A DNA stretch of 64,000 nucleotides, taken from the IMG/VR virus record IMGVR_UViG_3300042483_000604; one strand, given 5' to 3'. Shown here piece by piece: positions 44,387 through 60,060 of this stretch. Numbering within the stretch: the stretch's first letter is position 1; every line of letters starts with the position of its first letter. The stretch is from a virus (Duplodnaviria; Heunggongvirae; Uroviricota; Caudoviricetes). The position numbers were made by a program, and so were the translations under genes. The notes under the pieces were generated by a model. It did no database searches, was not told the origin of the DNA, and was given only the letters and a program-made list of their open reading frames with translations.

Positions 44387-44407
44387 ATCTTTTGCTTTTA
44401 AATTATA

Positions 44408-44440
44408 CCTAAATATATGAAATTATATTTGGCTTTCCAA
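44408..44440 (-). promoter_or_regulatory. promoter motif
   Basis: sequence. Confidence 0.5.
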
Positions 44441-44899: not shown

Positions 44900-45029
44900 T
44901 TATCTTTTTTTGGTTCATCTTCTCCAAACAAATCCTCTCCTTTATAGTCTGGATGTTTTGTATGCATTTCATCTATTCCTCTAACCCATAGTGCTACTAT
45001 TCCAATTAGCACAAATATTCCTATAGTAA

Positions 45030-45647: not shown

Positions 45648-45652
45648 AATTT

Positions 45653-46582
45653 TTATACTGTATGTTCAATTTGTACTCTTACACAATTCTGAGGTAATCT
45701 ATGGATGTGTCTGTAGTTGTTTATGTAACCCATCATATTTGCACTACCAACTGCATTTGCAGAATGTATTACAACATCAACAACAGGAGATCCATCAAGC
45801 CACTGATTGACCAACCATTTAGTGCAATCCATTCCAGTTTTCTCTTCAATGTTATCATAATTTAATTCGTAGTTGTGATACACGTTTGAGTGCCATTCAG
45901 CCATTGCTGAAGGTCCTAAATCATGATCTAATGAAATTATATCAATGTTTTCTAACCCGTAATAAGTAATTTGATCTACAAATTGTTCATAGTTTCTAAC
46001 TACTTTCCAAGTTGGATCAACTGGTGTTCTTACGTCGTCTAGGTATATTTTTATTTTATTCATATCAACAGTATTTTCAATACAAGTACAATCTGTTAAA
46101 TTGTCATTACAGTCTTTACATTGCAGTTTAGGTTCTTCTTTAGGAATGATGATTTTGTATTTACCCTTTAAACATTCTTTAGCATTTGGACAACTATCAT
46201 AATTCCATTCACAATTAAGACAAACACCTAATTCTTGTTTAATCTCAACAAACTCACAACTCTGATTCTTAACAAACCATTCTAGGAATTTATCATCAAT
46301 AGCTTGTACACCATCTTTGATTAACTCTTGGTCTGTTGTTAGAATGATTTTTCTCCAATCTCTTCTATCAAACAATCCTTGAGCATCTACTAATTTTGGA
46401 GTTGCTTGTATAAGGTAAATTCCATCAGTACACCATTCTCTTTCTTTAATTTCTTCATCAGAAGTGATATAGATATTTTGAGTATTCTTTCTCCATTGAA
46501 GTCTGTGTAATTCTAATACACCATCTTTGTTGTAAGATAATCTACTTGAATTTTCCGTTGGTAATACGTGTATGTTTTTCAT
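45653..46582 (-). CDS. cysteine-rich hypothetical protein
   Basis: multiple CxxC pairs in the central region. Confidence 0.45.
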   Translation of the reverse strand: MKNIHVLPTENSSRLSYNKDGVLELHRLQWRKNTQNIYITSDEEIKEREWCTDGIYLIQATPKLVDAQGLFDRRDWRKIILTTDQELIKDGVQAIDDKFLEWFVKNQSCEFVEIKQELGVCLNCEWNYDSCPNAKECLKGKYKIIIPKEEPKLQCKDCNDNLTDCTCIENTVDMNKIKIYLDDVRTPVDPTWKVVRNYEQFVDQITYYGLENIDIISLDHDLGPSAMAEWHSNVYHNYELNYDNIEEKTGMDCTKWLVNQWLDGSPVVDVVIHSANAVGSANMMGYINNYRHIHRLPQNCVRVQIEHTV

Positions 46583-46619
46583 AACCTTTACTTTAAATTA
46601 ATATCTAAATATACGAAAT

Positions 46620-47066
46620 TTATTTTGATAAAACAAACAATTCGTATACAGAATTTTCTGTATTAAATTTAATATAATCTTCTCTTTGTTCTACAATTTC
46701 TGTTACTGGTGTTGTTTGCCAAGTGAATGAAGGTCCGAATGGAGACATTAATAAACTTCTTCCAACAGCAATGTCTTTAAAGTCTGCTTTGTATCTTCCT
46801 TCTTCATCAAACTCTAACCATTTTATTCCTACTGATGTTTTAGTTAGTTGATCTCTTTCTCGAACTAATTTGTATTTTGGTTCTAGTTCTTTTCCGAAGA
46901 TGGACTTAAATGCTTCATCTAGATCAAATGTACCTTGCTCATTTTGAGTTAGTAATATTTTTGGCTGTGCTCCTCCTATCATAATCCTTTTTCTTTTTTG
47001 AATCGTTCTAATACACCATCCTGCAATACCAGTCCTTTCTCTCCTGCCACTCTTTCTACTAACCAT
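46620..47066 (-). CDS. hypothetical protein
   Basis: ORF track. Confidence 0.4.
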   Translation of the reverse strand: MVSRKSGRRERTGIAGWCIRTIQKRKRIMIGGAQPKILLTQNEQGTFDLDEAFKSIFGKELEPKYKLVRERDQLTKTSVGIKWLEFDEEGRYKADFKDIAVGRSLLMSPFGPSFTWQTTPVTEIVEQREDYIKFNTENSVYELFVLSK

Positions 47067-47212
47067 ATTGCAAACTCAGCAGCAAATTCTTCTGCTATTT
47101 TTTCGCATTCCATAGCATTATCTTCTGCTACATCTTTATCGTATGTGTTGGATAACATCCCGCTACCCATAAAGCAGTACATTCTAGGTAAAAACTTTTC
47201 TTTTAGTGTCAT
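46979..47212 (-). CDS. hypothetical protein
   Basis: ORF track. Confidence 0.35.
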   Translation of the reverse strand: MTLKEKFLPRMYCFMGSGMLSNTYDKDVAEDNAMECEKIAEEFAAEFAIWLVERVAGEKGLVLQDGVLERFKKEKGL

Positions 47213-47213
47213 A

Positions 47214-47774
47214 TTAAAATTTACTTTTTAAATCTTGTTTCTTAATAATCTGTTTCAATCTTTGAACGTATGTTGGATCCTCAGCATAGTTCTGTCTTAA
47301 GTATTCAAAATACTCTCCTTCAGTTTTAATACTTCTTAAGTAAGATGAATAATACAAAGCATAATCGATAACTGATTCTTGCCACGAATCGTAATACGCA
47401 TGATTTCTGTTTGTACCTTTTGCTAAATTAGCTCTTAACTTAGCTTCTTTCATACCGAACATGTTATTGTTCTCTAGAAAGATAGTTGATTTAAAATGCC
47501 CTGATTCTAATTTAGCTTGTGCTAGAATGATGTGAGGGTATCTAAAATTTAACTCTGTAATCTTTTCAATTAGTTTTTCTTCTGAGAACTCATTATATTC
47601 TCTAATTACTATTAATTTGTCTTCTTGAGATAAATTTTGTACCTCATTTGCTGGATTAGATGTGAATCCAAATAATAGTATTAATCCTACTGCTGCTCCT
47701 AAACCTGTTAATGTTTTGTTACTTACATTAACTTTTTCCGGTAACAATGTTTCTTCATTAAATTTGTAGTACAT
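47214..47774 (-). CDS. membrane-anchored N-acetylglucosaminidase-like peptidoglycan hydrolase
   Basis: ESGHFKS...NNNMFGMK resembles the FlgJ/LytD glucosaminidase motif; N-terminal TM. Confidence 0.5.
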   Translation of the reverse strand: MYYKFNEETLLPEKVNVSNKTLTGLGAAVGLILLFGFTSNPANEVQNLSQEDKLIVIREYNEFSEEKLIEKITELNFRYPHIILAQAKLESGHFKSTIFLENNNMFGMKEAKLRANLAKGTNRNHAYYDSWQESVIDYALYYSSYLRSIKTEGEYFEYLRQNYAEDPTYVQRLKQIIKKQDLKSKF

Positions 47775-47798
47775 AACCTTTTTGTTTTAATTATTATA

Positions 47799-47831
47799 CC
47801 TAAATATATGAAAAAAGAGTTGAACTAGCAA
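47799..47831 (-). promoter_or_regulatory. promoter motif with palindromic spacer
   Basis: sequence. Confidence 0.55.
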
Positions 47832-47848
47832 CTCTTTTAGTAATTATT

Positions 47849-48979
47849 TTAATGTGAATCTCCTACATCATGCTTCTCTCCGTAGATCAAATAGTCTGGA
47901 TTGATTACCTTTGCTACTTTCTTTCTATCACCTGAGGTATGTTTGATTACAATTCCTTCATGTGGTACTTTTGTTCCTTCAATGAAGTTATTAAATACAA
48001 ACATGTCTTGAACTTCTTGATTCCAAGTTCCGGTGTAAAGTACTTCTACGTGAGGTAAGTGTAACATATTGATTATTTCATATTGAGCTGAATCTGTTGA
48101 GAGATATTCGTTATCCATTTTTAAATCAAATCCTACGAACTCAATATCTTTCAAACCATATTCATAGTTCTTTTGAATACCGGCTCCATAAATTTCTCCG
48201 TAAAGAATAATTCCATCACCTACATGATAAGTTCCAAGAATATCACATAGGTCCCAAAGTTTTTCTTTAATACTATATTTTTCAGCTATTGTTCTCCAAA
48301 CATCAGTTGAGTAAAATCCTTGTGAGTCACTTCCTTTTTCACAGTTATGTGATCCATAAATGTATTCATAATCAATCCACTCATCAGCAAGTCTAAAGAA
48401 TTTTTTTACTTTATCCCAGAATGATAACTTACCTTTCTTTACAATACCGTATCTAGCATTTGTACCATGAATCTTTCTAGTGATTTGAACCATATCTTCT
48501 TCAGTGAACATTCCTGCTACGTTTTTAAGATTCGGGAATTTGTAGTAGATGTGGAAGTTTTGATTGTCTCTCCACTTAATCTTTCTACCTGAAGCCAATT
48601 GAATTTGTTTAACTGGTGGTTCATATTTTACAATACCAAATTTTTCCATCATGTCATCTCCATCTTGGTATCTGTCTCCATATCCTGGAATGTATTTAGT
48701 TGGGATGATTAGACATTCAGAATAAACTCCTCTTAATTTTACAGTTCTTACTCTACCTCCTTTTCTTAGGTAAGAAGTAACTCCCATTTTTTCAGAAAAT
48801 GCTTCTGGAATTACTGCATCTGTAGTTGCAATAACTGTTAAGTCACCTTCTTTAAATTCACCTTTTTTAGTGATAGCATTCCATCCTCCAACAATTACTT
48901 GTTCAATGTTGTCAGCATTTGGGATTGCTTTAATTTCGTTGATTGTTGCTACAAAGCAAACACTATTTTGATTTTCCAT
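47849..48979 (-). CDS. ATP-dependent RNA ligase (Rnl-type) with N-terminal OB/tRNA-binding-like domain
   Basis: KIHGTN nucleotidyltransferase motif I; promoter 47799-47831. Confidence 0.55.
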   Translation of the reverse strand: MENQNSVCFVATINEIKAIPNADNIEQVIVGGWNAITKKGEFKEGDLTVIATTDAVIPEAFSEKMGVTSYLRKGGRVRTVKLRGVYSECLIIPTKYIPGYGDRYQDGDDMMEKFGIVKYEPPVKQIQLASGRKIKWRDNQNFHIYYKFPNLKNVAGMFTEEDMVQITRKIHGTNARYGIVKKGKLSFWDKVKKFFRLADEWIDYEYIYGSHNCEKGSDSQGFYSTDVWRTIAEKYSIKEKLWDLCDILGTYHVGDGIILYGEIYGAGIQKNYEYGLKDIEFVGFDLKMDNEYLSTDSAQYEIINMLHLPHVEVLYTGTWNQEVQDMFVFNNFIEGTKVPHEGIVIKHTSGDRKKVAKVINPDYLIYGEKHDVGDSH

Positions 48980-49087
48980 TTTCTTTAATTTTGTTACACA
49001 TAATACATTTAACTTCTTTCAATACTAACCTTGTCCCTCGATAATTTATTTTCCAAAATTCTCTGAAGTCATGTTTGCATTCTTTTT

Positions 49088-49489
49088 TCATAACTGTACC
49101 TCGAATCTATTTTTCATTTGTACTAATTTTTCTTCTGGGACTCCATGCTCATTTACTCCTCCATGTCTATTTTCTACAATTAAAGAATAAACTCTGTATC
49201 CGTATTTTTCTGCTAGATCATAGTATGGTTGCATTTCCCATTCCTGAGTGAATGTATTTGATACTATAATTTTTTCATCAGGATTTATTCCGTTCCAATT
49301 TGACATTGACTCTTCAACTACTTGTCTACACCATTCATGAGCTGCTTTTAAATTTGAAGCATTGAATTCATATTCTCCTTTCTCATTAAGAAAGAAATGA
49401 TCTGCTTCATACCAAGAACCCCCTATACAATTTGCAAATGTTGATTTACCTGCTCCAGGTAATCCTCTTAATAAAAATAACTCTTTCAT
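49088..49489 (-). CDS. polynucleotide 5'-kinase (P-loop, T4 Pnk kinase-domain-like)
   Basis: LRGLPGAGKST Walker A, small AAA_33-type fold. Confidence 0.55.
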   Translation of the reverse strand: MKELFLLRGLPGAGKSTFANCIGGSWYEADHFFLNEKGEYEFNASNLKAAHEWCRQVVEESMSNWNGINPDEKIIVSNTFTQEWEMQPYYDLAEKYGYRVYSLIVENRHGGVNEHGVPEEKLVQMKNRFEVQL

Positions 49490-49634
49490 ACTATTCTCTT
49501 TTATCAGATAAATACTTTAAATAAAATGCCCATACTAAGTAGAATGTAGCTCTATCAATTTCTCCTGTCCATGTTGCTCCTACAGCCAAACCTGTACTTA
49601 TTGCTGAGGCTATTAGTAGTGTTGTTTTCATATT

Positions 49635-49904
49635 TTATATTTTTATAATATTATTTACTACTAATGCTCCTATGGCGTAACCTAAAGCTAAAGCAAAGGC
49701 CATTTTTATACGTTCATTCCAGAATTTAGATTCTACCATATAACCTGCAAACGGTAAAGCTAGAAATGGACCAATAAAAGCAAAAAATACCATTCCTATT
49801 GTATTAGCTTCTGCTGTAAAGCGAATATAGAATGTTGAACAAATCTCTATAATTAAAGCACTTGTAAAAATTATTCCATATTTTATATTAGATTCTTTTC
49901 TCAT
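49635..49904 (-). CDS. small membrane protein
   Basis: three hydrophobic segments. Confidence 0.4.
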   Translation of the reverse strand: MRKESNIKYGIIFTSALIIEICSTFYIRFTAEANTIGMVFFAFIGPFLALPFAGYMVESKFWNERIKMAFALALGYAIGALVVNNIIKI

Positions 49905-50538
49905 GATGATCCTTTGGCAACTCTAACTTTCTTATTGGCTGTTTTTCCATCAACGATAATACTTCGTCTAATGAAATTGGCTCTAAACCGTTTCCATCTA
50001 CTCCAACATCCATTGCTTTACCCTCTGCTACTCTTATATCTGCCGGTAAATGAACGTGTCCATGTAAGTGAATTACTCCGATGTTCATATCATGCCATGA
50101 CGCAATTGGATAGTGCATACAAACAAAAGTAAACTTTTCAGTTGTTGCTTTGTTGATTGGTCTTCTTACTTCTAATCTCAAGTATTGCTGTACTGAAGAA
50201 AATAGTCTTTGAATACCTTCCTTGTTTCTTTCAATGTGGTGATCATGGTTTCCAAGTACCAAGTGAATGTTTTTACAGTTGATTTGACTTCTGAATTCTT
50301 CAATCTTATCAAATCCTCCAAAGCTAAAATCCCCTAAGTGAATTAGAATATCATCTTCACCAACCATGTTGTTGATGTTATCCACCAAAGTCTTATTCAT
50401 AGAGGCAAGTGAATCGAATTCTCTTGTCAAGTTTGAAGACTCAGTCCAGTTTGTAGTAGCACTGCAAATGTTTGAATGTGAGTAATGTGTGTCTGATGTA
50501 AAGAACAATTGTTGTCCTTTTTCTAATACTAGTTTCAT
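49888..50538 (-). CDS. metallophosphoesterase (candidate 2',3'-phosphatase partner of the kinase/ligase)
   Basis: DTHYSH, HLGDF, GNHDHH, HGHVH motifs; promoter 50554-50586. Confidence 0.55.
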   Translation of the reverse strand: MKLVLEKGQQLFFTSDTHYSHSNICSATTNWTESSNLTREFDSLASMNKTLVDNINNMVGEDDILIHLGDFSFGGFDKIEEFRSQINCKNIHLVLGNHDHHIERNKEGIQRLFSSVQQYLRLEVRRPINKATTEKFTFVCMHYPIASWHDMNIGVIHLHGHVHLPADIRVAEGKAMDVGVDGNGLEPISLDEVLSLMEKQPIRKLELPKDHHEKRI

Positions 50539-51832: not shown

Positions 51833-51911
51833 ATGATAACTTTTTAATTTTGATTTATACTCTAATATAAGAAGAAAGGTTCAGGTTTCCAAACCTTTCT
51901 CCGAATATTTC

Positions 51912-52163
51912 TTATTGGTGATGTTTGATATACCTCCCATGTCTGTCTACTCTGACATTCATTCTTGTTAAATCAAAATACCAATTGTTAAACTTACCCA
52001 AGCGAGATTTCTGTCTTGCTTGTAGGTTTGCAGATTTTTCTGCTTCTTCTCGTCCGTTCTCTGTTGTTTCAACAAAAAACGTGGGAGCCTGAACACCAGT
52101 CATGCTGGTTGGAACTACTCTCCAAATTCTCAATTTCTGAGTCATAATACTTGAACTAGTCAA
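51912..52163 (-). CDS. hypothetical protein
   Basis: ORF track. Confidence 0.4.
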   Translation of the reverse strand: MTSSSIMTQKLRIWRVVPTSMTGVQAPTFFVETTENGREEAEKSANLQARQKSRLGKFNNWYFDLTRMNVRVDRHGRYIKHHQ

Positions 52164-52212
52164 GTACTACATTGGAGATGAGGGAATTGCTCTCATATTG
52201 GATAAACTTTAG

Positions 52213-52287
52213 TGTCCTATACAGGATTCGAACCTGTGACCTTCTCGTTATGAGCGAGCTGCTCTAACCGGCTGAGCTAAAAGGACA
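52213..52287 (-). tRNA. tRNA-Met/Ile2 (CAT)
   Basis: GGTTCGAATCC T-loop on minus strand, cloverleaf with CTCATAA anticodon loop. Confidence 0.7.
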
Positions 52288-52292
52288 ATTTG

Positions 52293-52366
52293 TAGCGTAG
52301 CGTGGACTCGAACCACCCCCCAGGCTTATGAGACCTAGATGCAACCTTTACACCTTAACGCAATTT
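52293..52366 (-). tRNA. tRNA-like, CAT anticodon loop, poorly paired acceptor/D arms
   Basis: TTCGAGT T-loop and CTCATAA loop, but acceptor has only 4 bp. Confidence 0.3.
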
Positions 52367-52372
52367 ATAAGC

Positions 52373-52444
52373 GGTCTGCACGGGGATCGAACCCGCAATC
52401 TTCGCAGTGACAGTGCGACGTGTTACCAATAACACCTCCAGACC
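52373..52444 (-). tRNA. tRNA-Asp (GTC)
   Basis: cloverleaf, loop CTGTCAC. Confidence 0.75.
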
Positions 52445-52498
52445 AAAATGCCCGTCTGTTCCGAGCTGTCAACCACCAGCTGTTATACAGCTGTATAG

Positions 52499-52570
52499 TG
52501 GAGCTACCGGGATTCGAACCCGGAATAACAGAATGCAAATCTATCGTGATGCCAATTTCACTATAGCCCC
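52499..52570 (-). tRNA. tRNA-Ala (TGC)
   Basis: cloverleaf, G3-U70 identity pair, loop TTTGCAT. Confidence 0.8.
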
Positions 52571-52645
52571 AGTTACTCGTCTTTCCGAGTCGTCAAATCT
52601 AGAAGCTGATTAAGCTATTCCTCCTAATACGAATAAAGAGCTCTG

Positions 52646-52717
52646 TACTGCGTACGGGATTCGAACCCGTGCCTTATCATAGAAAGTGATACGTGTTTAC
52701 CCCTTCACTAACGCAGC
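52646..52717 (-). tRNA. tRNA-Glu (TTC)
   Basis: cloverleaf, loop CTTTCTA. Confidence 0.75.
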
Positions 52718-52723
52718 AATTTG

Positions 52724-52795
52724 AGCGGCTAGAGAGAATCGAACTCTCATCTTTAGATTGGAAGTCTAAAGTAATGACCATTATACGATAGCCGC
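52724..52795 (-). tRNA. tRNA-Gly (TCC)
   Basis: cloverleaf, loop CTTCCAA. Confidence 0.8.
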
Positions 52796-52800
52796 AGTTG

Positions 52801-52874
52801 AGCTTCTGGACGGGATCGAACCGACTCTATTCTGGGTTACAAATCCAGTGCACCACCATTTGTGCGTCAGAAGC
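52801..52874 (-). tRNA. tRNA-Thr (TGT)
   Basis: cloverleaf, loop TTTGTAA closed by an A-C mismatch. Confidence 0.6.
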
Positions 52875-53069
52875 AAATTTAAACTATTAGAGGCTATTGG
52901 GAGTCATCAGTGGCAGCCTTTCACCGTAAACTCGGCTTCCCAATCTTATCTGCACATCTATCTAACTTTTTACGCATAATAGTTTATATTTTAATTAGAG
53001 CCGGGCTATGAATCCGTTCTGCAGGTTAGCCCCTGCTGCTTTAACCTTTATAAGCTAACTCTAATTTTG

Positions 53070-53143
53070 TACCCAAGGAGGGACTCGAACCCTCAATATC
53101 TAGATCCTAAGTCTAGCGTGTCTGCCAATTCCACCACTCGGGC
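53070..53143 (-). tRNA. tRNA with anticodon TAG (Leu-like D arm, short variable arm)
   Basis: GTGGAATTGGCAGAC D-arm like tRNA-Leu, loop CTTAGGA, A73, but only a 5-nt variable region. Confidence 0.5.
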
Positions 53144-53238
53144 ATTTGCCGCATGTGCGGCCACTTATCAATCGGTAGCTCCCTCTCGTTGTCCATCTGT
53201 GGGTGTAACACATTTGGTAGAGGGTCGAACCTTCAATG

Positions 53239-53309
53239 AGGTCGGTGTTGGAATCGAACCAACGTTACAGAGTTTGCAATCCTGCGCCTAACCATTCGGC
53301 CAACCGACC
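53239..53309 (-). tRNA. tRNA-Cys (GCA)
   Basis: cloverleaf, loop TTGCAAA, U73. Confidence 0.65.
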
Positions 53310-53394
53310 AATTTAAACATCTAGCCTGACCTGCCAGACAGTACGTGTCGTCGATCGTGCGTTACGTAGTAGATGTTTTATCTTCTTTCTTATA

Positions 53395-53427
53395 CTTAAA
53401 GATATGAACTTTATTTCTTTCTAGCAA
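53395..53427 (-). promoter_or_regulatory. promoter motif positioned to transcribe the tRNA sub-array 52213-53309
   Basis: sequence. Confidence 0.5.
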
Positions 53428-53436
53428 CTTTTTTTA

Positions 53437-53943
53437 CTAAAAAAATAAAAAAGTTTCCCATTCCTTTGGTATGTGTGTCATAGTTCTCATTAACATTAAA
53501 TAGTGAGGTCTTTTTGGTTCTGGAATTTCCTTACCGTATTCCTCTAATGTTAAATCTGCTTTCTCATGATTACATGGTCTGCAGGCTGTTACTAAATTAT
53601 CCCAAGCATCTTTTCCTCCTTTTGATTGAGGTATAACATGGTCAAGTGTTAGTGTTCTTTGATTTGAACATCCGCAGTAAACACATTCGTAATTATCTCT
53701 TCTATAAATATTCTCTCTTGTTAGAGCTACTTTTTGAATATTATGTTTTACATATGTAAATACTCTAATAATAGAAGGTTTATAAATTGTTAATTCTGGG
53801 TTATACAGATTAAATGTTTCTGGATGTTCAGCTATTACTTCAGCATTACCTTTATAAGAAATCACGAAAGCTCTTTCTGTACTTATAACTGATCTTGCGA
53901 TAAAGCTGGCATCTACTACTAGTGCTTTTTGATACTTACTCAT
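53437..53943 (-). CDS. HNH endonuclease inserted within the tRNA array
   Basis: CVYCG...LDHVIPQSKGG..WDNLVTAC..CNHEK canonical HNH motif. Confidence 0.8.
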   Translation of the reverse strand: MSKYQKALVVDASFIARSVISTERAFVISYKGNAEVIAEHPETFNLYNPELTIYKPSIIRVFTYVKHNIQKVALTRENIYRRDNYECVYCGCSNQRTLTLDHVIPQSKGGKDAWDNLVTACRPCNHEKADLTLEEYGKEIPEPKRPHYLMLMRTMTHIPKEWETFLFF

Positions 53944-53975
53944 GATTTACTTTTTTTAATGAAACAATATATTTG

Positions 53976-54052
53976 CGCGAACCCTAGGAATCGAACCCAG
54001 CCGTCGAGGTTTTGGAGACCTGACCGACACCTTGTCTGTGGAACGCATTTGT
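53976..54052 (-). other. degenerate tRNA-like element
   Basis: TTCGATT T-arm but no acceptable acceptor/anticodon arms. Confidence 0.25.
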
Positions 54053-54118
54053 AGGGTATCGCTTAACCTACCTAGATTAGCCTCATCTACTTAACCCTTA
54101 TGAGGGACGATTTTTTTG

Positions 54119-54189
54119 AACCCATACCTGGACTTGAACCAGGACTGAAACGTTAGAAGCGTTTAGTTCTTCCGATTAAACTATACGGG
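54119..54189 (-). tRNA. tRNA-Arg (TCT)
   Basis: cloverleaf, loop CTTCTAA, TTCAAGT T-loop. Confidence 0.7.
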
Positions 54190-54195
54190 CAGTTG

Positions 54196-54267
54196 AGGTC
54201 TTAGTAGGAGTCGAACCTACGTTCTATCGTTCGTAGCGATAAGTTTTTCCAATTAAACTATAAGACC
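54196..54267 (-). tRNA. tRNA-Arg (ACG)
   Basis: cloverleaf, loop CTACGAA. Confidence 0.75.
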
Positions 54268-54343
54268 AAATAAGAGAGGCTTTATTTAAGCTACTTTCTG
54301 CTATGCAACAGGGTAGGCAATTAGTCCTACATCTCTCTCTTTG

Positions 54344-54423
54344 TACCCCTGACTGGAGTCGAACCAGCAAGCCTGAGCGCCAAGTTTTAAGCCTGGTGTG
54401 TTTACCATTTTCACCACAGGGAT
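54344..54423 (-). tRNA. tRNA-Leu (TAA), class II
   Basis: loop CTTAAAA, 11-nt variable arm, A73. Confidence 0.65.
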
Positions 54424-54430
54424 ATGTTTG

Positions 54431-54504
54431 TGTGAAAGATGGGACTCGAACCCACAATCTCCTGAACCACAATCAGACGCTTTACCAATTCAGCTACAAT
54501 CACC
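54431..54504 (-). tRNA. tRNA-His (GTG)
   Basis: loop TTGTGGT, extra 5' G(-1); acceptor has two U-U mismatches. Confidence 0.55.
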
Positions 54505-54710
54505 ATATTGTACCGACTACAAGTTACGCTCTTGTCTGAGAATACTTATGAGATATTCTCGATCCTAGATCAAGTCGGTAGTTGATAGGGAACCTCTTAC
54601 CCTATCGCTGTACTATCTGATTTTAAAGTGTCTTACCACGGGGCCCCGTTCGTACTTCCTTCTCCTGCATTCCTTAGATGCGTTGTGAGGACGGTGAGGA
54701 GGTTTTTTTG

Positions 54711-54793
54711 AGGAAAGCAGAGGTATCGAACCCCATGCCCGAAGGCACGATACGCTTAGCAAGCGGTCTCAACTCCTAGTTGATTTACTTTCC
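54711..54793 (-). tRNA. tRNA-Ser (GCT), class II
   Basis: loop TTGCTAA, long variable-arm hairpin with UUCG loop; T-stem imperfect. Confidence 0.45.
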
Positions 54794-54798
54794 CTTTG

Positions 54799-54872
54799 TA
54801 GGTAATATAGGAATCGAACCTATAACCTCTCACGTATCAGGCGAGTGCTCTAACCAATTGAGCTAATTACCT
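54799..54872 (-). tRNA. tRNA-Ile (GAT)
   Basis: clean cloverleaf, loop CTGATAC. Confidence 0.8.
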
Positions 54873-54879
54873 ATTTTTG

Positions 54880-54955
54880 TGCTCATAGCTGGAATCGAAC
54901 CAACCTCGATAAGTCACTTACTCCAACCAACTGCTACTTGTTACGTACCTTGAGC
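54880..54955 (-). tRNA. tRNA, anticodon unresolved
   Basis: good T-arm and acceptor; D/anticodon arms could not be folded by eye. Confidence 0.4.
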
Positions 54956-55032
54956 TTTTACGATTGACCGTCACGTTATCCCACTTCAGGTTGGGGAGCT
55001 ACCACACTACCTGTTATACGAGCATTTAATTG

Positions 55033-55104
55033 CGGGCCTGGGAGGAATCGAACCTCCATAAGATGATTAACAGTCATCCGTAATAACCTTTATACGACAA
55101 ACCC
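55033..55104 (-). tRNA. tRNA-Asn (GTT)
   Basis: cloverleaf, perfect GATGA/TCATC anticodon stem, loop CTGTTAA. Confidence 0.8.
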
Positions 55105-55109
55105 GGTTG

Positions 55110-55182
55110 TGGACCCTACAGGAATCGAACCTGTTCCTCTAGTTCTTCAGACTAGCGTACGCACCAGCTATACAAAAGGTCC
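55110..55182 (-). tRNA. tRNA-Phe (GAA)
   Basis: cloverleaf, loop CTGAAGA. Confidence 0.8.
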
Positions 55183-55187
55183 AATTG

Positions 55188-55270
55188 TGGGATACTGTGG
55201 AATCGAACCACACGCTTCTTACAGCAACGATTTTACAGACCGCTTATCACACCAGTGACTGAAGCATCCC
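55188..55270 (-). tRNA. tRNA-Tyr (GTA), class II
   Basis: loop CTGTAAA, long variable arm. Confidence 0.7.
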
Positions 55271-55276
55271 AATTTG

Positions 55277-55348
55277 ATCATTCTACAGGAATCGAACCTG
55301 CTTCTCCACCCTCCACGGGCAGCGTAGTCACCAATCTACCAAGAACGA
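55277..55348 (-). tRNA. tRNA, atypical anticodon loop CGTGGAG (TGG-like, lacks U33)
   Basis: good acceptor, D and T arms. Confidence 0.4.
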
Positions 55349-55447
55349 AACTATAACAAGCTTTCATCGGCAAATTACTAACTCATAATAGACTCCATAT
55401 AGTCTTGAAAATACTTGCCGGTATTTTACTTGCTACCCAGAATTTTG

Positions 55448-55518
55448 TACCTCGTGATAGAATCGAACTATCGCCCTTTGCATGTAAAACAAATACGCTA
55501 CCATTACGCCAACGAGGC
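55448..55518 (-). tRNA. tRNA-Val (TAC)
   Basis: cloverleaf, loop TTTACAT. Confidence 0.75.
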
Positions 55519-55575
55519 AAATCTAATTCTACGCTTCGGTCTAAAAGCCCTTCTATGAATTAGTAACAGTCTTCT
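55519..55575 (-). repeat. conserved tRNA 5'-leader, copy 1 (upstream of tRNA-Val)
   Basis: CAAATCTAATTCTACGCTTCG...CTTCTATGAATTAGTAACAGTCT shared with 55653-55712. Confidence 0.5.
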
Positions 55576-55579
55576 TTTG

Positions 55580-55652
55580 TACCCCCGGCTGGCCTCGAAC
55601 CAGCTACCCCCGAGTTAAAAGCCCGGTGCCCGTCCACATGAGCTTCGAAGGC
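55580..55652 (-). tRNA. tRNA-Lys (TTT)
   Basis: cloverleaf, loop CTTTTAA, perfect T-stem. Confidence 0.7.
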
Positions 55653-55712
55653 AAATCTAATTCTACGCTTCGAGGACTTACTCGCGTGGTCTTCTATGAA
55701 TTAGTAACAGTC
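55653..55712 (-). repeat. conserved tRNA 5'-leader, copy 2 (upstream of tRNA-Lys)
   Basis: direct repeat of 55519-55575. Confidence 0.5.
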
Positions 55713-55720
55713 TCTTCTCG

Positions 55721-55796
55721 TCTGGTAGGCAGGATTCGAACCTGCGTGCTCTAGCGTCCAAGGCCAGCGAGATAAACCGGACTCCTCTACTACCAG
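55721..55796 (-). tRNA. tRNA-Pro (TGG)
   Basis: cloverleaf, loop CTTGGAC. Confidence 0.75.
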
Positions 55797-56011
55797 TGGT
55801 GAAGGGATTATTTTTTTAAAGTAGAATTCGCCCATCTCAAAACTACTGTAATTTCCGTAAGCAAAGCCATCGGGCTGATTCCCTGTACTCATGTCTTGCA
55901 TCGTTTTCTCCATATGGATTTCTCCACTACTTACTGATAATGCTTTCTTTACTAACCGTCCTACTTACTGATCAAGTGTTGGGATAGGCTTTCATTACTT
56001 ACAATTATTTG

Positions 56012-56083
56012 TTGGCTTACTAGGATTCGAACCTAGACTAAAACAGTCAAAGTGTTTTGTGCTAACCGTTACACTATAAGCCA
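56012..56083 (-). tRNA. tRNA-Gln (TTG)
   Basis: cloverleaf, AAACA/TGTTT stem, loop CTTTGAC. Confidence 0.8.
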
Positions 56084-56089
56084 ATATTG

Positions 56090-56173
56090 AGGAAGACGTG
56101 GGACTCGAACCCACAACAGTATTACCTGCTACCACTTTTCAAGAGTGGCTCCTGATCCAGCCGGATGCCTTCC
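56090..56173 (-). tRNA. tRNA-Ser (TGA), class II
   Basis: CCACT/AGTGG stem, loop CTTGAAA, long variable arm. Confidence 0.7.
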
Positions 56174-56221
56174 CTATGCTTTATCCAATATGTCAATGAA
56201 CTCTTATTCTTTATTTCTGTA

Positions 56222-56253
56222 CCTAAAGATACGATTTTTTTTTCTTTCTAGCA
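56222..56253 (-). promoter_or_regulatory. promoter motif positioned to transcribe the tRNA sub-array ending at 56173
   Basis: sequence. Confidence 0.5.
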
Positions 56254-56270
56254 ACTTTTTTTTAATAAAA

Positions 56271-56305
56271 AACCCGAATCTTTTTTTGATCCGGGTACCT
56301 TACTT
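56271..56305 (-). terminator. hairpin plus U-run upstream of the promoter at 56222
   Basis: ACCCGGATC-A7-GATTCGGGT then U6 on the minus strand. Confidence 0.35.
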
Positions 56306-56332
56306 ATAATATGTATTTTATACTATATCATA

Positions 56333-56476
56333 TCATACCCCGGTACCTCCTTGTTTCGGTTCGTTATTATATCCAGCAAAGCCTAAAATGACATCCCCAC
56401 ATAACGAATCCGACCACGTATTCAATGCTCTTGTCGCTGTGCTAAGTTGTTGATGTATGTTTTGAATTGCTTTCAT
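56333..56476 (-). CDS. small hypothetical protein (47 aa)
   Basis: ORF preceded by tandem promoter motifs 56496-56527 and 56565-56596. Confidence 0.25.
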   Translation of the reverse strand: MKAIQNIHQQLSTATRALNTWSDSLCGDVILGFAGYNNEPKQGGTGV

Positions 56477-56495
56477 TTTATTTGCTTTCTATATA

Positions 56496-56527
56496 TAAAT
56501 ATATGAACTTTTCCATTCCAGTCCAAC
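56496..56527 (-). promoter_or_regulatory. promoter motif (tandem copy 1)
   Basis: sequence. Confidence 0.4.
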
Positions 56528-56564
56528 TATATTTTAATTTTTTTTCTTTGTGTTTTTATATATT

Positions 56565-56596
56565 ATAAATATACGAACTTTTATTTTATAAAACAA
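56565..56596 (-). promoter_or_regulatory. promoter motif (tandem copy 2)
   Basis: sequence. Confidence 0.4.
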
Positions 56597-56616
56597 CTAC
56601 TGTTCTTTGGATTAAT

Positions 56617-56928
56617 TTATCCGTTTATTAATTTTTTTTTCTTAACTGGCTCACATCCATCATTGTTAATTGACGTAAGTTTTTGTTCTAATTTGTCTAC
56701 TCTGGAGTCTGTATAGGAAATACAGTCTGAGTGTAGTTTGTTTACTCGATCAACTTCCTGATCAATTCTACGATTTACTAATTCATCGTTTCTAGAAATC
56801 CAGTTCTGTATTTCAGTTAACTCTTTTTCTTGCTTTGCTACTTTGCTTGCTGTTCTAAACGCTACCACAACCCCCCATGCAAGGAGAGCTATACCAACCC
56901 CTAAAACAAATGCTAAAATTTGTTCCAT
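56617..56928 (-). CDS. membrane-anchored coiled-coil protein
   Basis: N-terminal TM helix. Confidence 0.4.
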   Translation of the reverse strand: MEQILAFVLGVGIALLAWGVVVAFRTASKVAKQEKELTEIQNWISRNDELVNRRIDQEVDRVNKLHSDCISYTDSRVDKLEQKLTSINNDGCEPVKKKKLING

Positions 56929-56969
56929 AATTTATAATTTTTATTTCAAAGAACAGTAGTTTAATTTTG

Positions 56970-57066
56970 TAGTCAGGACAGGATTCGAACCTGCTCCAGC
57001 TTTGCCATAAATAGTATATTTCAACTAAACCTTGGGGAGGTGCCACCAACCAATGGTCTCCTGACT
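56970..57066 (-). tRNA. atypically long (97 nt) tRNA-like gene, possible insertion/intron
   Basis: canonical T-arm and 7-bp acceptor pairing, but ~25 extra nt between D and T regions. Confidence 0.35.
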
Positions 57067-57071
57067 GTTTG

Positions 57072-57157
57072 GAATCGGTGAGGGATTCGAACCCTCATCC
57101 CGCTTAGAAGCGGTGTTACCCTCTGTCGGTATTCATTCCCGATTACACCAACCGATT
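57072..57157 (-). tRNA. class II tRNA (Leu/Ser-like), anticodon unresolved
   Basis: perfect GAGGG/CCCTC T-arm, 7-bp acceptor, variable-arm hairpin CCGC-TTCTAA-GCGG. Confidence 0.5.
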
Positions 57158-57283
57158 CTTTTTTTACCAACCTTGGTCTTTCAGGGTTTCTGATTGAGTG
57201 CAATAAGTGGCGCCTTCCTACTATAAACCCTTGTTCGGAAATTAATACACTCTACCTCTCAATTAACAGCGAGCATTGGTAAA

Positions 57284-57481
57284 TTACTTTGTAGTTGCAG
57301 CGTCGATTGAATCTTGTACTGCTTCTGTTGCGATAATTGCAGCCTCTTGAGTTGTATCAACTGCTACTGAATCAACTACTACTGCTGTTGAGTCTACTGT
57401 TGAGGTTTCAGCTGTGTTTACTTTGTTACAAGAAACTAATACTGTTGCTACTAATGCTAATGCTAAAAATACTTTTTTCAT
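57284..57481 (-). CDS. small lipoprotein
   Basis: signal peptide with LVSC lipobox; promoter 57509-57541. Confidence 0.5.
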   Translation of the reverse strand: MKKVFLALALVATVLVSCNKVNTAETSTVDSTAVVVDSVAVDTTQEAAIIATEAVQDSIDAATTK

Positions 57482-57943: not shown

Positions 57944-58834
57944 TTAATTGTTATGGTTATTTAATACTTTTGTTACTTCTGTTACTACATGTTCCCATGT
58001 TACTGGTCCTGTTTCGTCTGCGTAAGGAGCTGGATCAGGTCTTCCTAATTTAATAAATGCTTCTACTCTTTCAACTGATGAAGCTGATTTATAATCTGAG
58101 AACCATTCTTCAAATTTTTCAAATGTTACTGGGTCATGGTATACCATTTTAATTGGTTTGTAAGATGTATTAGTTCTTGAATAAACTTCATCAAAGTCTA
58201 ATCCTAACTCTTTACATAATACTTCTCCGTCTTGTAAGATAGTAAATTTATCTCCTTCTAAGTAAGGTGTAAAATACCCTACTCTTTCTGCTTCCCAGTT
58301 ACCCATTCTAAAAGCTGCATCATCTGCATCTCTAAATTCTTGTCTACAGTCTGGATAAATTGCATGATCACCTGCATGGATACCCATTGCAATATCACAA
58401 GTCTCTCCTGTTCTATTTGCAACTGATAAAGCTACTGCTTGAGTAATAGAAGCAAATATTTTGTTTCTGTTAGGAACAACTGTTGCTTTCATATTATCTT
58501 CTGCATAGTGACCTTCTGGTACATCTTCACCTCCTGTTACTAAAGCTGAATCTAGTAAATCAACTAATCCTTTTAATTGGATTTGGCGATACATAACTTC
58601 ATTGTAGTTTTTTCCTACTACCGTAATTGTACCTAATTGATCTTGTTCCGCTTTTTCAGAGCAACCATTAAGGTACTCTACTAATGATTGAGCTCTCTCT
58701 AACTCTACTCTGTGTTTTTGACCATAGTCAAAGCTAATAGCTGTAACTGTGTCATACTCTTTTAGACATCTAAGTAATAAGGTACTTGAGTCCATTCCTC
58801 CTGATAAGGATACTACAACATGTTTTTTAGACAT
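57944..58834 (-). CDS. queC: 7-cyano-7-deazaguanine synthase with C-terminal extension
   Basis: VVSLSGGMDSST PP-loop motif; ~70 aa longer than a typical QueC. Confidence 0.7.
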   Translation of the reverse strand: MSKKHVVVSLSGGMDSSTLLLRCLKEYDTVTAISFDYGQKHRVELERAQSLVEYLNGCSEKAEQDQLGTITVVGKNYNEVMYRQIQLKGLVDLLDSALVTGGEDVPEGHYAEDNMKATVVPNRNKIFASITQAVALSVANRTGETCDIAMGIHAGDHAIYPDCRQEFRDADDAAFRMGNWEAERVGYFTPYLEGDKFTILQDGEVLCKELGLDFDEVYSRTNTSYKPIKMVYHDPVTFEKFEEWFSDYKSASSVERVEAFIKLGRPDPAPYADETGPVTWEHVVTEVTKVLNNHNN

Positions 58835-59793: not shown

Positions 59794-60060
59794 TTAGTTT
59801 AAAATTAATTCTTTTAATTCTTCTACCCCTAGTCTTCCAGATGCAGCTTTTACTTCTACTCCGTCTTGAAGAACTACTGTGTGAGGAATTCCTCTTACCT
59901 TATGCTGACCTGATAAGTTTTCTGTATCTTCCTCTACATTAATTTCTAAGAAAGTAATCTCATCACTTTCTAACTCTTCTCTTACTTTTGTAAATGTAGG
60001 TCCATATACTTTACACGGACCACACCAATTAGCATAAAACTTAATTACCTGCTTTGCCAT
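59794..60060 (-). CDS. thioredoxin
   Basis: WCGPC active site. Confidence 0.75.
   Translation of the reverse strand: MAKQVIKFYANWCGPCKVYGPTFTKVREELESDEITFLEINVEEDTENLSGQHKVRGIPHTVVLQDGVEVKAASGRLGVEELKELILN

Follow-up and report, generated by a model that had tools for sequence, protein, structure and literature searches.

A phage tRNA array interspersed with structured RNAs, non-canonical tRNAs and tRNA-shaped RNAs lacking an anticodon loop

Results

Organization of the array

The IMG/VR record IMGVR_UViG_3300042483_000604 represents a tailed virus (Caudoviricetes), and the stretch analysed here, 64 kb in length and hereafter called the window, is part of a large myophage. This myophage is kin of Flavobacterium phage vB_FspM_immuto (immuto), whose gene order it shares: phosphoesterase, transfer RNAs (tRNAs), small membrane-protein open reading frame (ORF) and QueC. 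The minus strand of the window carries a tRNA array at 52212-57158, the RNA-gene island of a large Flavobacteriia-type myophage. A preliminary description, made from the sequence letters, had recognized there a phage tRNA array with atypical tRNAs, an HNH endonuclease gene inside, internal promoters and structured spacers; this core reading is upheld, and the comparative evidence strengthens it. A phage tRNA array accompanied by an endonuclease gene is a known kind of object. What is new is how complete and how structurally relaxed the tRNA set is, how many conserved tRNA mimics without anticodon and other structured passenger RNAs are lodged among the tRNAs and, above all, a widespread and unannotated pseudoknotted RNA that we call sp0.

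Using ARAGORN, 23 tRNA genes were called, all on the minus strand (52212-57157) and none elsewhere in the window, and 19 of the 23 pass the Rfam tRNA gathering score. Relaxed ARAGORN settings together with comparative alignments add a Ser(GCU), a Trp(CCA) and two CAU tRNAs (54510-54579 and 52292-52364). A permissive Rfam scan returned additional matches to tRNA or to the selenocysteine tRNA (tRNA-Sec) only below threshold, at the loci that had been called odd from the start; these atypical loci are not recognized as canonical tRNAs, the Rfam scores of X1, X2, X3 and X5 (Table 1) lying far below threshold. A score above the curated threshold combined with a 7-nucleotide (nt) anticodon loop with U33 was found in the 21 canonical decoders only. 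In total, the array holds about 29-30 tRNA or tRNA-like units, against the count of about 27 tRNA genes given beforehand; the anticodon list given there is correct.

More than 120 related loci were gathered from IMG/VR, with the 103-amino-acid (aa) ORF of Table 1 and QueC as probes, and more than 20 of them possess the same array with the same gene order; the order of the array units was found to be conserved in more than 40 IMG/VR contigs. BLAST of every unit against these loci reveals a mosaic: tRNAs and spacers are 75-100% identical, the patterns of identity fit no single phylogeny, and several spacers are more conserved than the flanking protein genes. Furthermore, the breakpoints at which cassettes are present or absent fall exactly at tRNA boundaries. 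None of the tRNA genes of the array encodes CCA; tRNAs and tRNA-like units have in common a trailer N73-CAA(A/T), almost every unit continuing into N73-C-A-A.

Table 1. Features of the tRNA array and its immediate surroundings, with positions in the window (L numbers designate loci of the comparison)
Feature	Position	Strand	Basis
sp0, pseudoknotted RNA of about 120 nt	57163-57283	-	Conservation, helix check by script
sp0 copy, Erwinia phage Hena1	L261:1451-1570		
sp0 copy, Klebsiella phage RaK2	L262:~895-1010		
sp0 copy, Pectobacterium phage PM2	L260:~1480-1600		
X1, non-decoding tRNA-like RNA	57071-57158	-	ARAGORN, permissive Rfam, covariation
X2, 97-nt non-decoding tRNA-like RNA	56970-57066	-	Permissive Rfam, covariation
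ORF, 103 aa, N-terminal hydrophobic helix, no family match; anchor for related loci	56617-56928	-	
ORF, 47 aa, conserved in 39 loci	56333-56476	-	
Intrinsic-terminator-like hairpin, closes upstream operon	56272-56296	-	
Promoter-like cassette, copy 1, placed to drive first sub-array	56208-56272	-	Repeat comparison
tRNA-Ser(UGA), class II	56089-56173	-	ARAGORN, permissive Rfam
tRNA-Gln(UUG)	56011-56083	-	ARAGORN, Rfam
SP1, 214-nt accessory non-coding cassette	55797-56010	-	Comparison of related loci
tRNA-Pro(UGG)	55720-55796	-	ARAGORN, Rfam
SP2, leader hairpin 5' of tRNA-Lys, paralogue of SP3	55653-55719	-	Sequence comparison, folding
tRNA-Lys(UUU)	55579-55652	-	ARAGORN, Rfam
SP3, leader hairpin 5' of tRNA-Val, paralogue of SP2	55519-55578	-	Sequence comparison, folding
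tRNA-Val(UAC)	55447-55518	-	ARAGORN, Rfam
SP4, structured pseudoknotted RNA	55349-55446	-	Covariation
X3, tRNA-shaped RNA, no U33	55276-55348	-	Comparative alignments
tRNA-Tyr(GUA), class II	55187-55270	-	ARAGORN, permissive Rfam
tRNA-Phe(GAA)	55109-55182	-	ARAGORN, Rfam
tRNA-Asn(GUU)	55032-55104	-	ARAGORN, Rfam
SP5el, 146-nt tRNA-like RNA	54879-55024	-	Folding, covariation
tRNA-Ile(GAU)	54798-54872	-	ARAGORN, Rfam
X4, non-canonical tRNA-Ser(GCU)	54710-54793	-	Relaxed ARAGORN
SP6, conserved structured spacer	54580-54709	-	Covariation
Met3, 71-nt mitochondrion-like tRNA(CAU)	54510-54579	-	Relaxed ARAGORN, comparative alignments
tRNA-His(GUG), G-1 encoded, tandem U·U mismatch in acceptor stem	54430-54503	-	ARAGORN, Rfam
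tRNA-Leu(UAA), short 11-nt variable arm	54343-54423	-	ARAGORN, alignments
SP7, 75-nt spacer	54268-54342	-	Folding
tRNA-Arg(ACG)	54195-54267	-	ARAGORN, Rfam
tRNA-Arg(UCU)	54118-54190	-	ARAGORN, Rfam
X5, non-canonical tRNA-Trp(CCA)	53976-54046	-	Relaxed ARAGORN, comparative alignments
HNH endonuclease gene, 168 aa	53437-53943	-	Pfam, PHROG
Promoter-like cassette, copy 2, placed to drive second sub-array	53381-53445	-	Repeat comparison
tRNA-Cys(GCA)	53238-53309	-	ARAGORN, Rfam
SP10, 94-nt conserved structured RNA	53144-53237	-	Conservation, covariation
tRNA-Leu(UAG), class-I-length variable loop AUAUU	53069-53143	-	ARAGORN, Rfam, alignments
SP11a, 76-nt cloverleaf-like RNA	52990-53066	-	Folding, covariation
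tRNA-Thr(UGU)	52800-52874	-	ARAGORN, Rfam
tRNA-Gly(UCC)	52723-52795	-	ARAGORN, Rfam
tRNA-Glu(UUC)	52645-52717	-	ARAGORN, Rfam
tRNA-Ala(UGC), with G3·U70	52498-52570	-	ARAGORN, Rfam
tRNA-Asp(GUC)	52371-52444	-	ARAGORN, Rfam
Met2, initiator-type tRNA(CAU) homologue	52292-52364	-	Relaxed ARAGORN, alignments
Met1, tRNA(CAU), elongator Met or Ile2	52212-52286	-	ARAGORN, Rfam
ORF, 76 aa (MTQKLRIWRVV...), 3' end of array, structured leader	51912-52142	-	Codon-position pattern
Terminator-like hairpin, 14 pairs, closes array transcription unit	51871-51902	-	

tRNA-shaped RNAs without an anticodon loop

X1, X2, X3 and SP5el have the shape of a tRNA and lack both the 7-nt loop with U33 and an anticodon conserved among orthologues; their Rfam scores amount to 19-26 bits, to the tRNA-Sec model only, which needs 47. 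X1 is built of an 8-base-pair (bp) acceptor stem, a 5-bp T-stem and two variable hairpins whose loops of 3-6 nt differ between relatives, and the 7-nt anticodon loop is absent. Double changes are seen in 14 of its 21 pairs with 97% pairing, and none of 500 shuffles reaches the observed covariation score; the same controls, 500 shuffles each, were applied to X5, SP10 and SP4, and sliding the partner strand collapses the pairing. The "anticodon" that ARAGORN assigns to X1 is different in each relative called, and the homologue in the immuto record is annotated as "tRNA-Cys". The identification of X1 as a tRNA-Sec, an allo-tRNA or a "tRNA-Cys/Leu(CAG)" was rejected since the anticodon loop is lacking. 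With regard to tRNA-Sec, X1 has the 8+5 branch without a 6-bp D-stem, and scores 25.9 bits against the threshold of 47. The combination typical of tRNA-Sec or allo-tRNA (an 8/5, 8/4 or 9/3 branch, a 6-bp D-stem, a long variable arm and an anticodon, UCA for Sec) was considered for X1 as well as for Met3 and found in neither.

X2 had been noticed as a 97-nt tRNA-like gene with about 25 extra nucleotides, for which an intron, an insertion or a tRNA-derived non-coding RNA were envisaged. The element is real and retains acceptor stem, D-arm and T-arm, all of which covary, and in place of the anticodon arm it has a 3-4-bp hairpin whose loop measures 5 nt. The 25 extra nucleotides make up a long, covarying hairpin of the variable arm, which, together with the 5-nt loop, led us to reject the intron and to retain the tRNA-derived non-coding RNA.

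X3 lacks U33, as had been pointed out for 55277-55348, and is non-decoding. It keeps acceptor stem, D-arm and T-arm, and its 6-bp "anticodon" stem is closed by a G-N-R-R-A-type pentaloop (GUGGA, GCGAA, GCGGA or GUGAA), or else position 33 is a G, and the "anticodon" differs in every relative. G3·U70, which is an identity pair for alanyl-tRNA synthetase (AlaRS) and for transfer-messenger RNA (tmRNA), is constant in X3 while pairs 6-67 and 7-66 covary; over about two independent lineages, this constancy is suggestive only. A tmRNA made of SP4 and X3 was considered and rejected, X3 being a complete cloverleaf at the 3' side and no conserved tag ORF being found; ARAGORN called no tmRNA in the window at default settings, and at low threshold gave artefacts only. 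SP5el has a covarying 7-bp acceptor stem (TGCTCGT/ATGAGCA) and a canonical T-arm, and its D-arm and "anticodon" arm are greatly expanded.

Structured cassettes between the tRNAs

The spacers had been proposed to be structured and possibly to encode small RNAs, and structure is confirmed for SP10, SP4, SP6 and SP11a, i.e. at 53144-53237, 55349-55446, 54580-54709 and 52990-53066. SP10 is 86-98% identical in 25 loci, with two compensated hairpins and long invariant stretches; 6 of its 21 pairs show double changes, and the observed score is reached by 0/500 shuffles. A single copy of its core is found in each of 34 viral contigs, and none among 185,579 bacterial species genomes. SP10 usually lies directly 5' of Leu(UAG), otherwise of Ser(UGA) or Leu(UAA), and no antisense target for its invariant single strand GATTGATAAGTG was found in the window. 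Both SP10 and sp0 are still present in relatives with only 3-4 tRNAs.

SP4 folds into three nested helices with compensatory changes (double changes in 9/19 pairs; 0/500 shuffles) and a pseudoknot in which the hairpin loop CGGCAA pairs with a downstream TTGCCG. This pseudoknot itself covaries, to CTGTAA/TTACAG or CTACAA/TTGTAG in distant clades. SP4 and X3 are gained or lost together, as a 176-nt unit located exactly between Val and Tyr. Compensatory changes were also detected in three hairpins of SP6, one of which has an invariant loop, CUAAGGA, and in three pairs of SP11a, which follows flush after Leu(UAG) and has none of the tRNA loop signatures. Pair counts likewise indicate covariation for Met3, X3, SP5el and X2, as they do for SP6 and SP11a. 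None of sp0, SP10, SP4, SP6 and SP11a has a covariance match in Rfam 15 at E up to 10 in the window. Finally, G·U pairs within the helices are found on the tRNA-sense strand, for example in helix 3 of X1, which argues for RNA rather than DNA.

Other spacers are of narrower distribution. SP1 is 87-97% identical in 6 loci and missing in others, where the gap between Gln and Pro amounts to 5-8 nt; CAGTAAGTAG occurs twice in it. SP7 folds as a cloverleaf-like four-way junction (z = -2.8) and has no homologue in the related loci. The heptamer AGTAAGT is found 5 times in the array spacers (52100-57300, minus strand) against 0.85 expected, a modest enrichment. In three relatives (L002:14228-14414, L009 and L017), an extra cassette of about 100 nt that is absent from the window lies between Met2 and Met1 and is closed by GACTAAATG/CATTTAGTC, and yet other inserted tRNA-like elements are carried by L031, L034 and L089. 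Evidently, the phage family holds many such inserted cassettes.

sp0, a pseudoknotted RNA shared by phages of several bacterial phyla

The sp0 element lies just beyond the region delimited in the preliminary description, 1 nt past the stop codon of the upstream ORF on one side and about 5 nt before X1 on the other. In most relatives, its 121 nt are conserved at 93-99% identity, and the inner hairpins vary. The helix P1 is formed by TTTACCAA/TTGGTAAA, and a pseudoknot by GGGTTT, in the loop of the S3-S4 hairpin, with AAACCC further downstream. The conserved core reads AAGGGUUWAYAGUA, followed after 8-38 nt by CAGWAACCCYGAAAGAC.

This core was found in 99 IMG/VR contigs, some of them 212-455 kb long, and, using a relaxed pattern, in at least 120 metagenome contigs. 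A scan of bacterial genomes gave as sole finds 6 contigs of metagenome-assembled genomes, which are probably phage contigs. Among cultured phages, the long form has no BLAST match at E up to 1e-3, and the 98-nt short form at E up to 10 retrieves about 44 genuine records; some 156 matches of 19 nt inside nrdD of Felix-O1-like phages were discarded as spurious. The cultured carriers include RaK2-like Klebsiella jumbo phages, Erwinia phage Hena1, the T4-like Pectobacterium phage PM2 and immuto, as well as Rhizobium, Pseudomonas and Vibrio phages. The motif is found from phages of Flavobacterium, Klebsiella, Erwinia, Pectobacterium, Rhizobium, Pseudomonas and Vibrio to jumbo phage contigs. Nearly all the cultured-phage records have nothing annotated at this site; in immuto, a coding sequence for a hypothetical protein is annotated over the sp0 match on the opposite strand.

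In 64 distinct copies of the main form (type A), P1 always has at least 6 bp (median 9) and occurs in 42 different sequences, the two inner helices exist in 28 and 34 versions, and the pseudoknot is GGGUUU/AAACCC in 36 copies and GGGUUA/UAACCC in 22. A further 14 copies are circularly permuted, P1 being capped by a hairpin and the ends opening in an inner helix. MAFFT and RNAalifold run on 45 sp0 sequences recovered the pseudoknot helix alone; because alignment offsets limited this approach, the helices were checked by script in each sequence.

With respect to neighbours, the 3' end of a tRNA called by ARAGORN lies -1 to +2 nt from the first base of P1 in 19/59 copies, and a tRNA starts 3-9 nt after P1 in 21/59. 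In cultured phages, sp0 is packed as Gly-sp0-Glu (Hena1) or Gly-sp0 (RaK2). No protein neighbour common to different phage families was found. Rfam gave no match for sp0 in 17 diverse sp0-bearing loci (E up to 5) nor in four cultured-phage loci (E up to 10), and does not support likenesses to 5S ribosomal RNA, to conserved regions of RNase P, or to the pistol and hatchet ribozymes, which had been considered as candidates. No genuine ribozyme of the hepatitis delta virus (HDV)-like or theta kind was found in the array using Rfam HDV and a crude home-made descriptor, a test of moderate strength (7-bp P1 from G1·U, P2, P3, P1.1, catalytic C in J4/2, nested double pseudoknot and cleavage at the tRNA 3' end). 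At L199:3563-3670, in a 247-kb viral contig and some 500 nt away from an sp0 copy, YrlA (bacterial Y RNA-like) is matched below threshold (41 bits; gathering score 69); in other loci, weak YrlA matches overlap tRNAs.

Short-armed tRNA-Leu and other non-canonical decoders

The UAG tRNA had been singled out for a Leu-type D-arm combined with a variable region of class I length, and this is borne out: the gene measures 75 nt, its variable loop 5 nt, and its D-arm is of the Leu type. It does not have the variable arm of more than 10 nt forming a stem-loop that defines class II tRNA-Leu. Among 21 distinct orthologues, the variable region is mostly of 5-7 nt and reaches 11-13 nt in four loci (L029, L039, L079 and L119), and free covariation is seen in the stems of the acceptor, anticodon and T-arm. 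Leu(UAA) likewise falls into short and long forms, several relatives having 5-6 nt. The D-arm of Leu(UAG) is retained, with a 3-bp stem and an 11-nt loop containing A14, A15, G18G19 and A20a, and so are U48 and A73. Judged by sequence, the tRNA thus has the identity set of a bacterial tRNA-Leu (A73, A14, A15-U48, G18G19, A20a, 3-bp D-stem and large D-loop). In E. coli, the identity elements of leucyl-tRNA synthetase (LeuRS) do not depend on the variable arm, and a long arm is not needed (PMC9976931). Since the elements required by LeuRS are kept and the long arm can be dispensed with in E. coli, short-armed Leu(UAG) is very probably still a leucine acceptor. Both Leu isoacceptors have lost or shrunk the long variable arm and kept the identity elements of bacterial LeuRS. 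A Leu(UAG) of about 76 nt is also present, with no comment in the record, in the cultured Cellulophaga phage phi4:1.

Loci that had been described as degenerate tRNA-like copies are not decaying pseudogenes, for they are conserved and their stems display compensatory changes. That at 53976-54052 contains X5, a conserved non-canonical tRNA-Trp with an invariant CUCCAAA loop, discriminator G73 and a D-arm cut down to GACA-AGG-TGTC. Double compensatory changes occur in 13 of its 22 pairs, and 0/500 shuffles attain the covariation score. The acceptor stem contains a tandem U·U mismatch kept in six distinct sequences of the Trp lineage; the position of X5 holds a canonical Trp in some relatives, and its mini D-arm is shared by a Thr(UGU) paralogue. 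U·U mismatches, tandem or single, recur in the acceptor stems of tRNA-His, X5 and the first CAU tRNA (52212-52286). The copy at 52293-52366 is Met2, an initiator-type CAU tRNA with a 1x72 mismatch and, in the lineage of the window, a weak acceptor stem; its counterpart in relatives has CGCGAGU...ACUCGCU-A, also with a 1x72 mismatch, and the anticodon stem covaries among relatives.

Met3 combines a 4-bp D-stem, a 3-4-nt D-loop and an 8-bp anticodon stem with a T-loop, AGCGUAA, that is unlike the usual TΨC loop and whose stem covaries. In X4, an AGG triloop caps the 6-bp D-stem and a UUCG loop closes the long variable arm.

Decoding capacity and codon usage

With the four rescued decoders, the array amounts to 25 different anticodons: each four-codon box has a U34 anticodon, ACG is present for Arg, and CAU occurs in three tRNAs. 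This set is minimal and complete, and in principle suffices to read all sense codons. In the phage genes, codons ending in A represent 41-62% of the usage in each four-codon box apart from Leu CUN and Arg CGN; GCA accounts for 53% of Ala, GGA for 61% of Gly, GUA for 62% of Val, AGA for 83% of Arg, UUA for 54% of Leu and AUA for 32% of Ile. The comparison with phage codon usage, which had been recommended as a check, shows that the anticodon set agrees with this strong preference for A-ending codons. Such a set would let phage genes be translated largely without reliance on the host tRNA pool, and probably keeps late translation going when host tRNAs run short or come under attack (PMC10264068), a self-sufficiency that fits the presence of RNA-repair genes nearby.

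HNH gene, promoter-like cassettes and neighbouring genes

The endonuclease gene that splits the array encodes a protein matching Pfam HNH_5 (E = 2.3e-15) and HNH (E = 7e-14) as well as PHROG 16726 (E = 3e-33). It had been presented as inserted; the gene is confirmed, and its occurrence at the same position in 31 related loci, with 79-90% nucleotide identity, makes it a fixed resident rather than a recent insertion. Generic HNH families aside, the protein is matched best in NCBIfam by the HNH domains of IscB (E = 4e-18) and Cas9d (E = 4e-12), with scores that fall far short of the cut-offs, a likeness that is probably at the level of the domain only.

The two promoter-like cassettes are copies of a 65-nt repeat with 78% identity, each with a Bacteroidota-type -33/-7 layout (TTG, 20 nt, TATCTTTA), and are predicted to be promoters; copy 1 sits just after the terminator-like hairpin of the upstream operon. 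In 18 loci, the nucleotide sequence of the 76-aa ORF is conserved to about 97%, and its product has no family match. Its variable sites fall on third codon positions in 30 cases against 12 and 11 at the first two. The leader, which together with the ORF occupies 51912-52211 in the window, has two hairpins whose sequence differs between relatives and whose pairing is kept. A larger frame, "orf83" (51912-52163), was considered as an RNA element on account of its 97% nucleotide conservation and rejected, the substitution pattern being that of a protein-coding sequence with the 76-aa ORF starting at an internal ATG, and this region served as a negative control for the conserved-RNA calls.

Beside the array, at 43455-50538, lies an RNA-repair-like gene set (ORFs 47849-48979, 45653-46582, 43455-44156 and 49888-50538) comprising a DRB0094-type RNA ligase, a cREC cyclic-phosphate-processing receiver-domain protein and two calcineurin-like metallophosphoesterases. 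The ligase ORF (47849-48979) has TIGR02306 as best match, over its full length, with 99 bits (E = 2.5e-28; cut-off 151 bits), together with Pfam RNA_ligase and the OB domain PHA02142. Upstream of the array, QueC (7-cyano-7-deazaguanine synthase, 57944-58834) and a thioredoxin-like ORF (59794-60060) suggest a 7-deazaguanine metabolism.

Discussion

We consider it probable that this locus is an array of tRNAs carrying passenger RNAs that are freed by tRNA processing. This interpretation is built on the sequences themselves, on their conservation and covariation, on the flush packing of the units, on the shared trailer and on the match to codon usage. The passengers comprise four or more tRNA shapes without anticodon loop and five or more other structured RNAs that are not tRNAs, two of them pseudoknotted, and each passenger cassette lies flush against the neighbouring tRNA boundaries with a terminal helix formed by its own ends. 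Transcription and processing of the array, aminoacylation of its decoders and any function that the passengers may exert in trans are inferred. The two promoter cassettes would drive two polycistronic sub-arrays with the HNH gene between them, and the precursors would be cut wherever a tRNA or tRNA-like unit meets its neighbour, by the RNase P, RNase Z or exonucleases and CCA-adding enzyme of the host. With its two ends joined in a helix, each passenger would be freed as a discrete, end-protected small RNA, which would reproduce on a larger scale the situation of the species 1 and 2 RNAs of phage T4.

Several points weigh against this interpretation. Met2 has only four Watson-Crick acceptor pairs, and decoders with such weak features, like Trp and His with their tandem U·U, might be poorly functional. 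Five spacers (54268-54342, 54053-54117, 52571-52644, 52445-52497 and 52875-52984) have no counterpart among the related loci and might be functionless. Many of the alignments represent only 2-4 independent lineages, so that the cell counts overstate the number of independent compensatory events. The promoters, the structure of the precursor, the stability of the RNAs and a fit of the tRNAs to the host synthetases are predictions.

For sp0, the main rival is that some cassettes, and this one above all, are cis-acting processing modules, for example self-cleaving ribozymes that, by cutting at or close to their own boundary, mature neighbouring tRNA ends as theta ribozymes do for the 3' ends of phage tRNAs, an explanation that we regard as possible but doubtful. 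It would account for the proximity of the first P1 base to the upstream tRNA 3' end in the 19/59 copies mentioned above, for the very strong conservation of unpaired core nucleotides across phages of different host phyla, and for the circularly permuted forms, which are also found in hammerhead and twister ribozymes. It is further favoured by cyclic-phosphate-processing genes near the array and by CCA-less tRNAs, a Bacteroidota-type host and a putative DRB0094-type ligase, three correlates of theta-ribozyme phages (PMC10879173). However, no known ribozyme family matches, Rfam remaining empty at E up to 10, and the crude HDV-like descriptor found in the whole array nothing but one spurious match inside tRNA-Ile. 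A conserved dinucleotide at the P1 boundary is not visible, 4-5 nt separate the encoded CCA from P1 in RaK2 and Hena1, and sp0 follows an ORF, not a tRNA, in the window and in the permuted copies examined. Passive excision, as in the passenger interpretation, explains the flush packing equally well. We also judge it unlikely that X1, X2, X3 and SP5el are decoys or sponges for host tRNA-targeting nucleases, toxins or sensors, with the non-canonical decoders as nuclease-resistant replacements: a decoy for an anticodon nuclease should retain a mimic of the anticodon loop, which all four lack, the phage has no known host or defence system, and the structured cassettes that are not tRNA-like would be left unexplained. 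What speaks for decoys is that phage tRNAs counter anticodon nucleases, PARIS and retron effectors (PMC10264068, PMC11464382, PMC11555353), that RNA-repair genes flank the array, and that the acceptor and T-arm halves of the tRNA-like units are conserved while their anticodon regions vary freely.

That the odd tRNA-like units and spacers are merely decaying pseudogenes and filler, similar through recent descent or recombination, seems very improbable. Several spacers are unique to this phage, some, such as SP7, fold like relic cloverleaves, and the array is a mosaic of modules 75-100% identical that follow no single phylogeny, all of which would be in keeping with such decay; yet double compensatory changes keep the helices between strongly diverged lineages (SP4 clades, X1 and sp0), loop and junction nucleotides are invariant while stems vary, and SP10 and sp0 persist in relatives reduced to 3-4 tRNAs. 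We give hardly any credence to a role of the conserved spacers as DNA, be it as recombination hot-spots, homing-endonuclease sites, or replication or packaging signals. The gain and loss of cassettes as units and the presence of an HNH endonuclease would be in keeping with it, but G·U pairs are tolerated on the transcribed strand only (X1, SP4 and X5), pseudoknots and tRNA-like folds make sense in RNA only, and the cassettes have the strand and the boundaries of tRNA genes.

Tentatively, and with considerable reserve, sp0 might be viewed as the founding member of an RNA class not described before, which would be widespread in phage tRNA clusters and would take part in the maturation of tRNA ends, as a new kind of self-cleaving or processing ribozyme or by some other activity. 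The other cassettes and the anticodon-less mimics would then belong, as functional RNAs equally new to description, to phage "RNA islands". The annotation of phage tRNA arrays usually lists the tRNAs and passes over the remainder; here, this remainder is largely conserved structured RNA, and sp0, present in phages of several bacterial phyla, is yet absent from Rfam. The location of the array beside RNA-repair genes bears on the arms race between phages and tRNA-targeting host systems, and its new features make it worth experimental follow-up.

Clusters of more than 20 tRNAs are found, as here, in Cellulophaga phage phi4:1, T5, KVP40 and mycobacteriophages, in whose arrays no passenger RNAs or non-decoding tRNA-like units are annotated or discussed. 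The record of Cellulophaga phage phi4:1_13 contains, within a 23-tRNA array, two "tRNA-Pseudo" features (L158:1287-1360 and 1732-1813) and the Leu(UAG) of about 76 nt, and these may be the same kinds of non-canonical units.

Processing handles of tRNA-like shape also exist in the MALAT1 mascRNA and in the tRNA-microRNA units of gammaherpesviruses. In plant mitochondria, the ends of neighbouring RNAs are set by t-elements, which are tRNA-shaped handles for RNase P and RNase Z and have no conserved anticodon (PMC1920247). All of these are eukaryotic or organellar, unlike the units described here, and the covariation of both the D-arm and the "anticodon" stem of X3 suggests more constraint than a bare RNase P handle needs. 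The decoders themselves resemble animal mitochondrial tRNAs by a tRNA-Leu without long variable arm, by reduced D-loops and non-canonical T-loops (Met3, X5 and X4), and by a minimal anticodon set with U34 in four-codon boxes, whereas the present ones belong to a phage of bacteria and have mostly canonical T-loops. They offer counter-examples to the textbook statements that tRNA-Leu is always long-armed outside animal mitochondria and that tRNAs used in bacterial cells keep a canonical D-loop; a 2020 review of non-canonical tRNAs does not mention phages (PMC7609411).

Theta ribozymes, which are minimal HDV-like ribozymes, are separated from the 3' ends of phage tRNAs by no more than about 1 nt; the phages that carry them are for the most part Bacteroidota phages whose tRNAs lack an encoded CCA, and the occurrence of these ribozymes goes together with that of DRB0094 ligases (PMC10879173, Kienbeck et al. 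2024). sp0 shares with them the packing against tRNA 3' ends, Bacteroidota, CCA-less tRNAs and a putative DRB0094-family ligase; it differs in that its 5' strand pairs with its own 3' end and its hairpin loop with the 3' strand, which is not the HDV double pseudoknot.

The T4 cluster consists of 8 tRNAs, is split by the segB endonuclease gene, and ends with the stable RNAs rnaD (species 2) and rnaC (species 1) (PMC11143913). Both arrays have tRNA sub-clusters parted by a free-standing endonuclease gene, some T4 tRNA genes are likewise without encoded CCA and processed from multimeric precursors, and extra small stable RNAs of unassigned function belong to the cluster; moreover, rnaC (139 nt) has a T-arm (CCGGGTTCGAATCCCGG), as do the oversized tRNA-like units described here. 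The present array differs by its 25 decoders against 8, by an endonuclease of the HNH rather than the GIY-YIG type, and by about ten passenger RNAs, some of them pseudoknotted, against two in T4, and no sequence similarity to rnaC or rnaD was seen in a comparison by eye only. By analogy, the array passengers would fit the T4 species 1 and 2 RNAs in location and fold. This revives the 50-year-old question of the role of these RNAs, of which RaK2, Hena1, PM2 and immuto now provide more examples in culturable phages.

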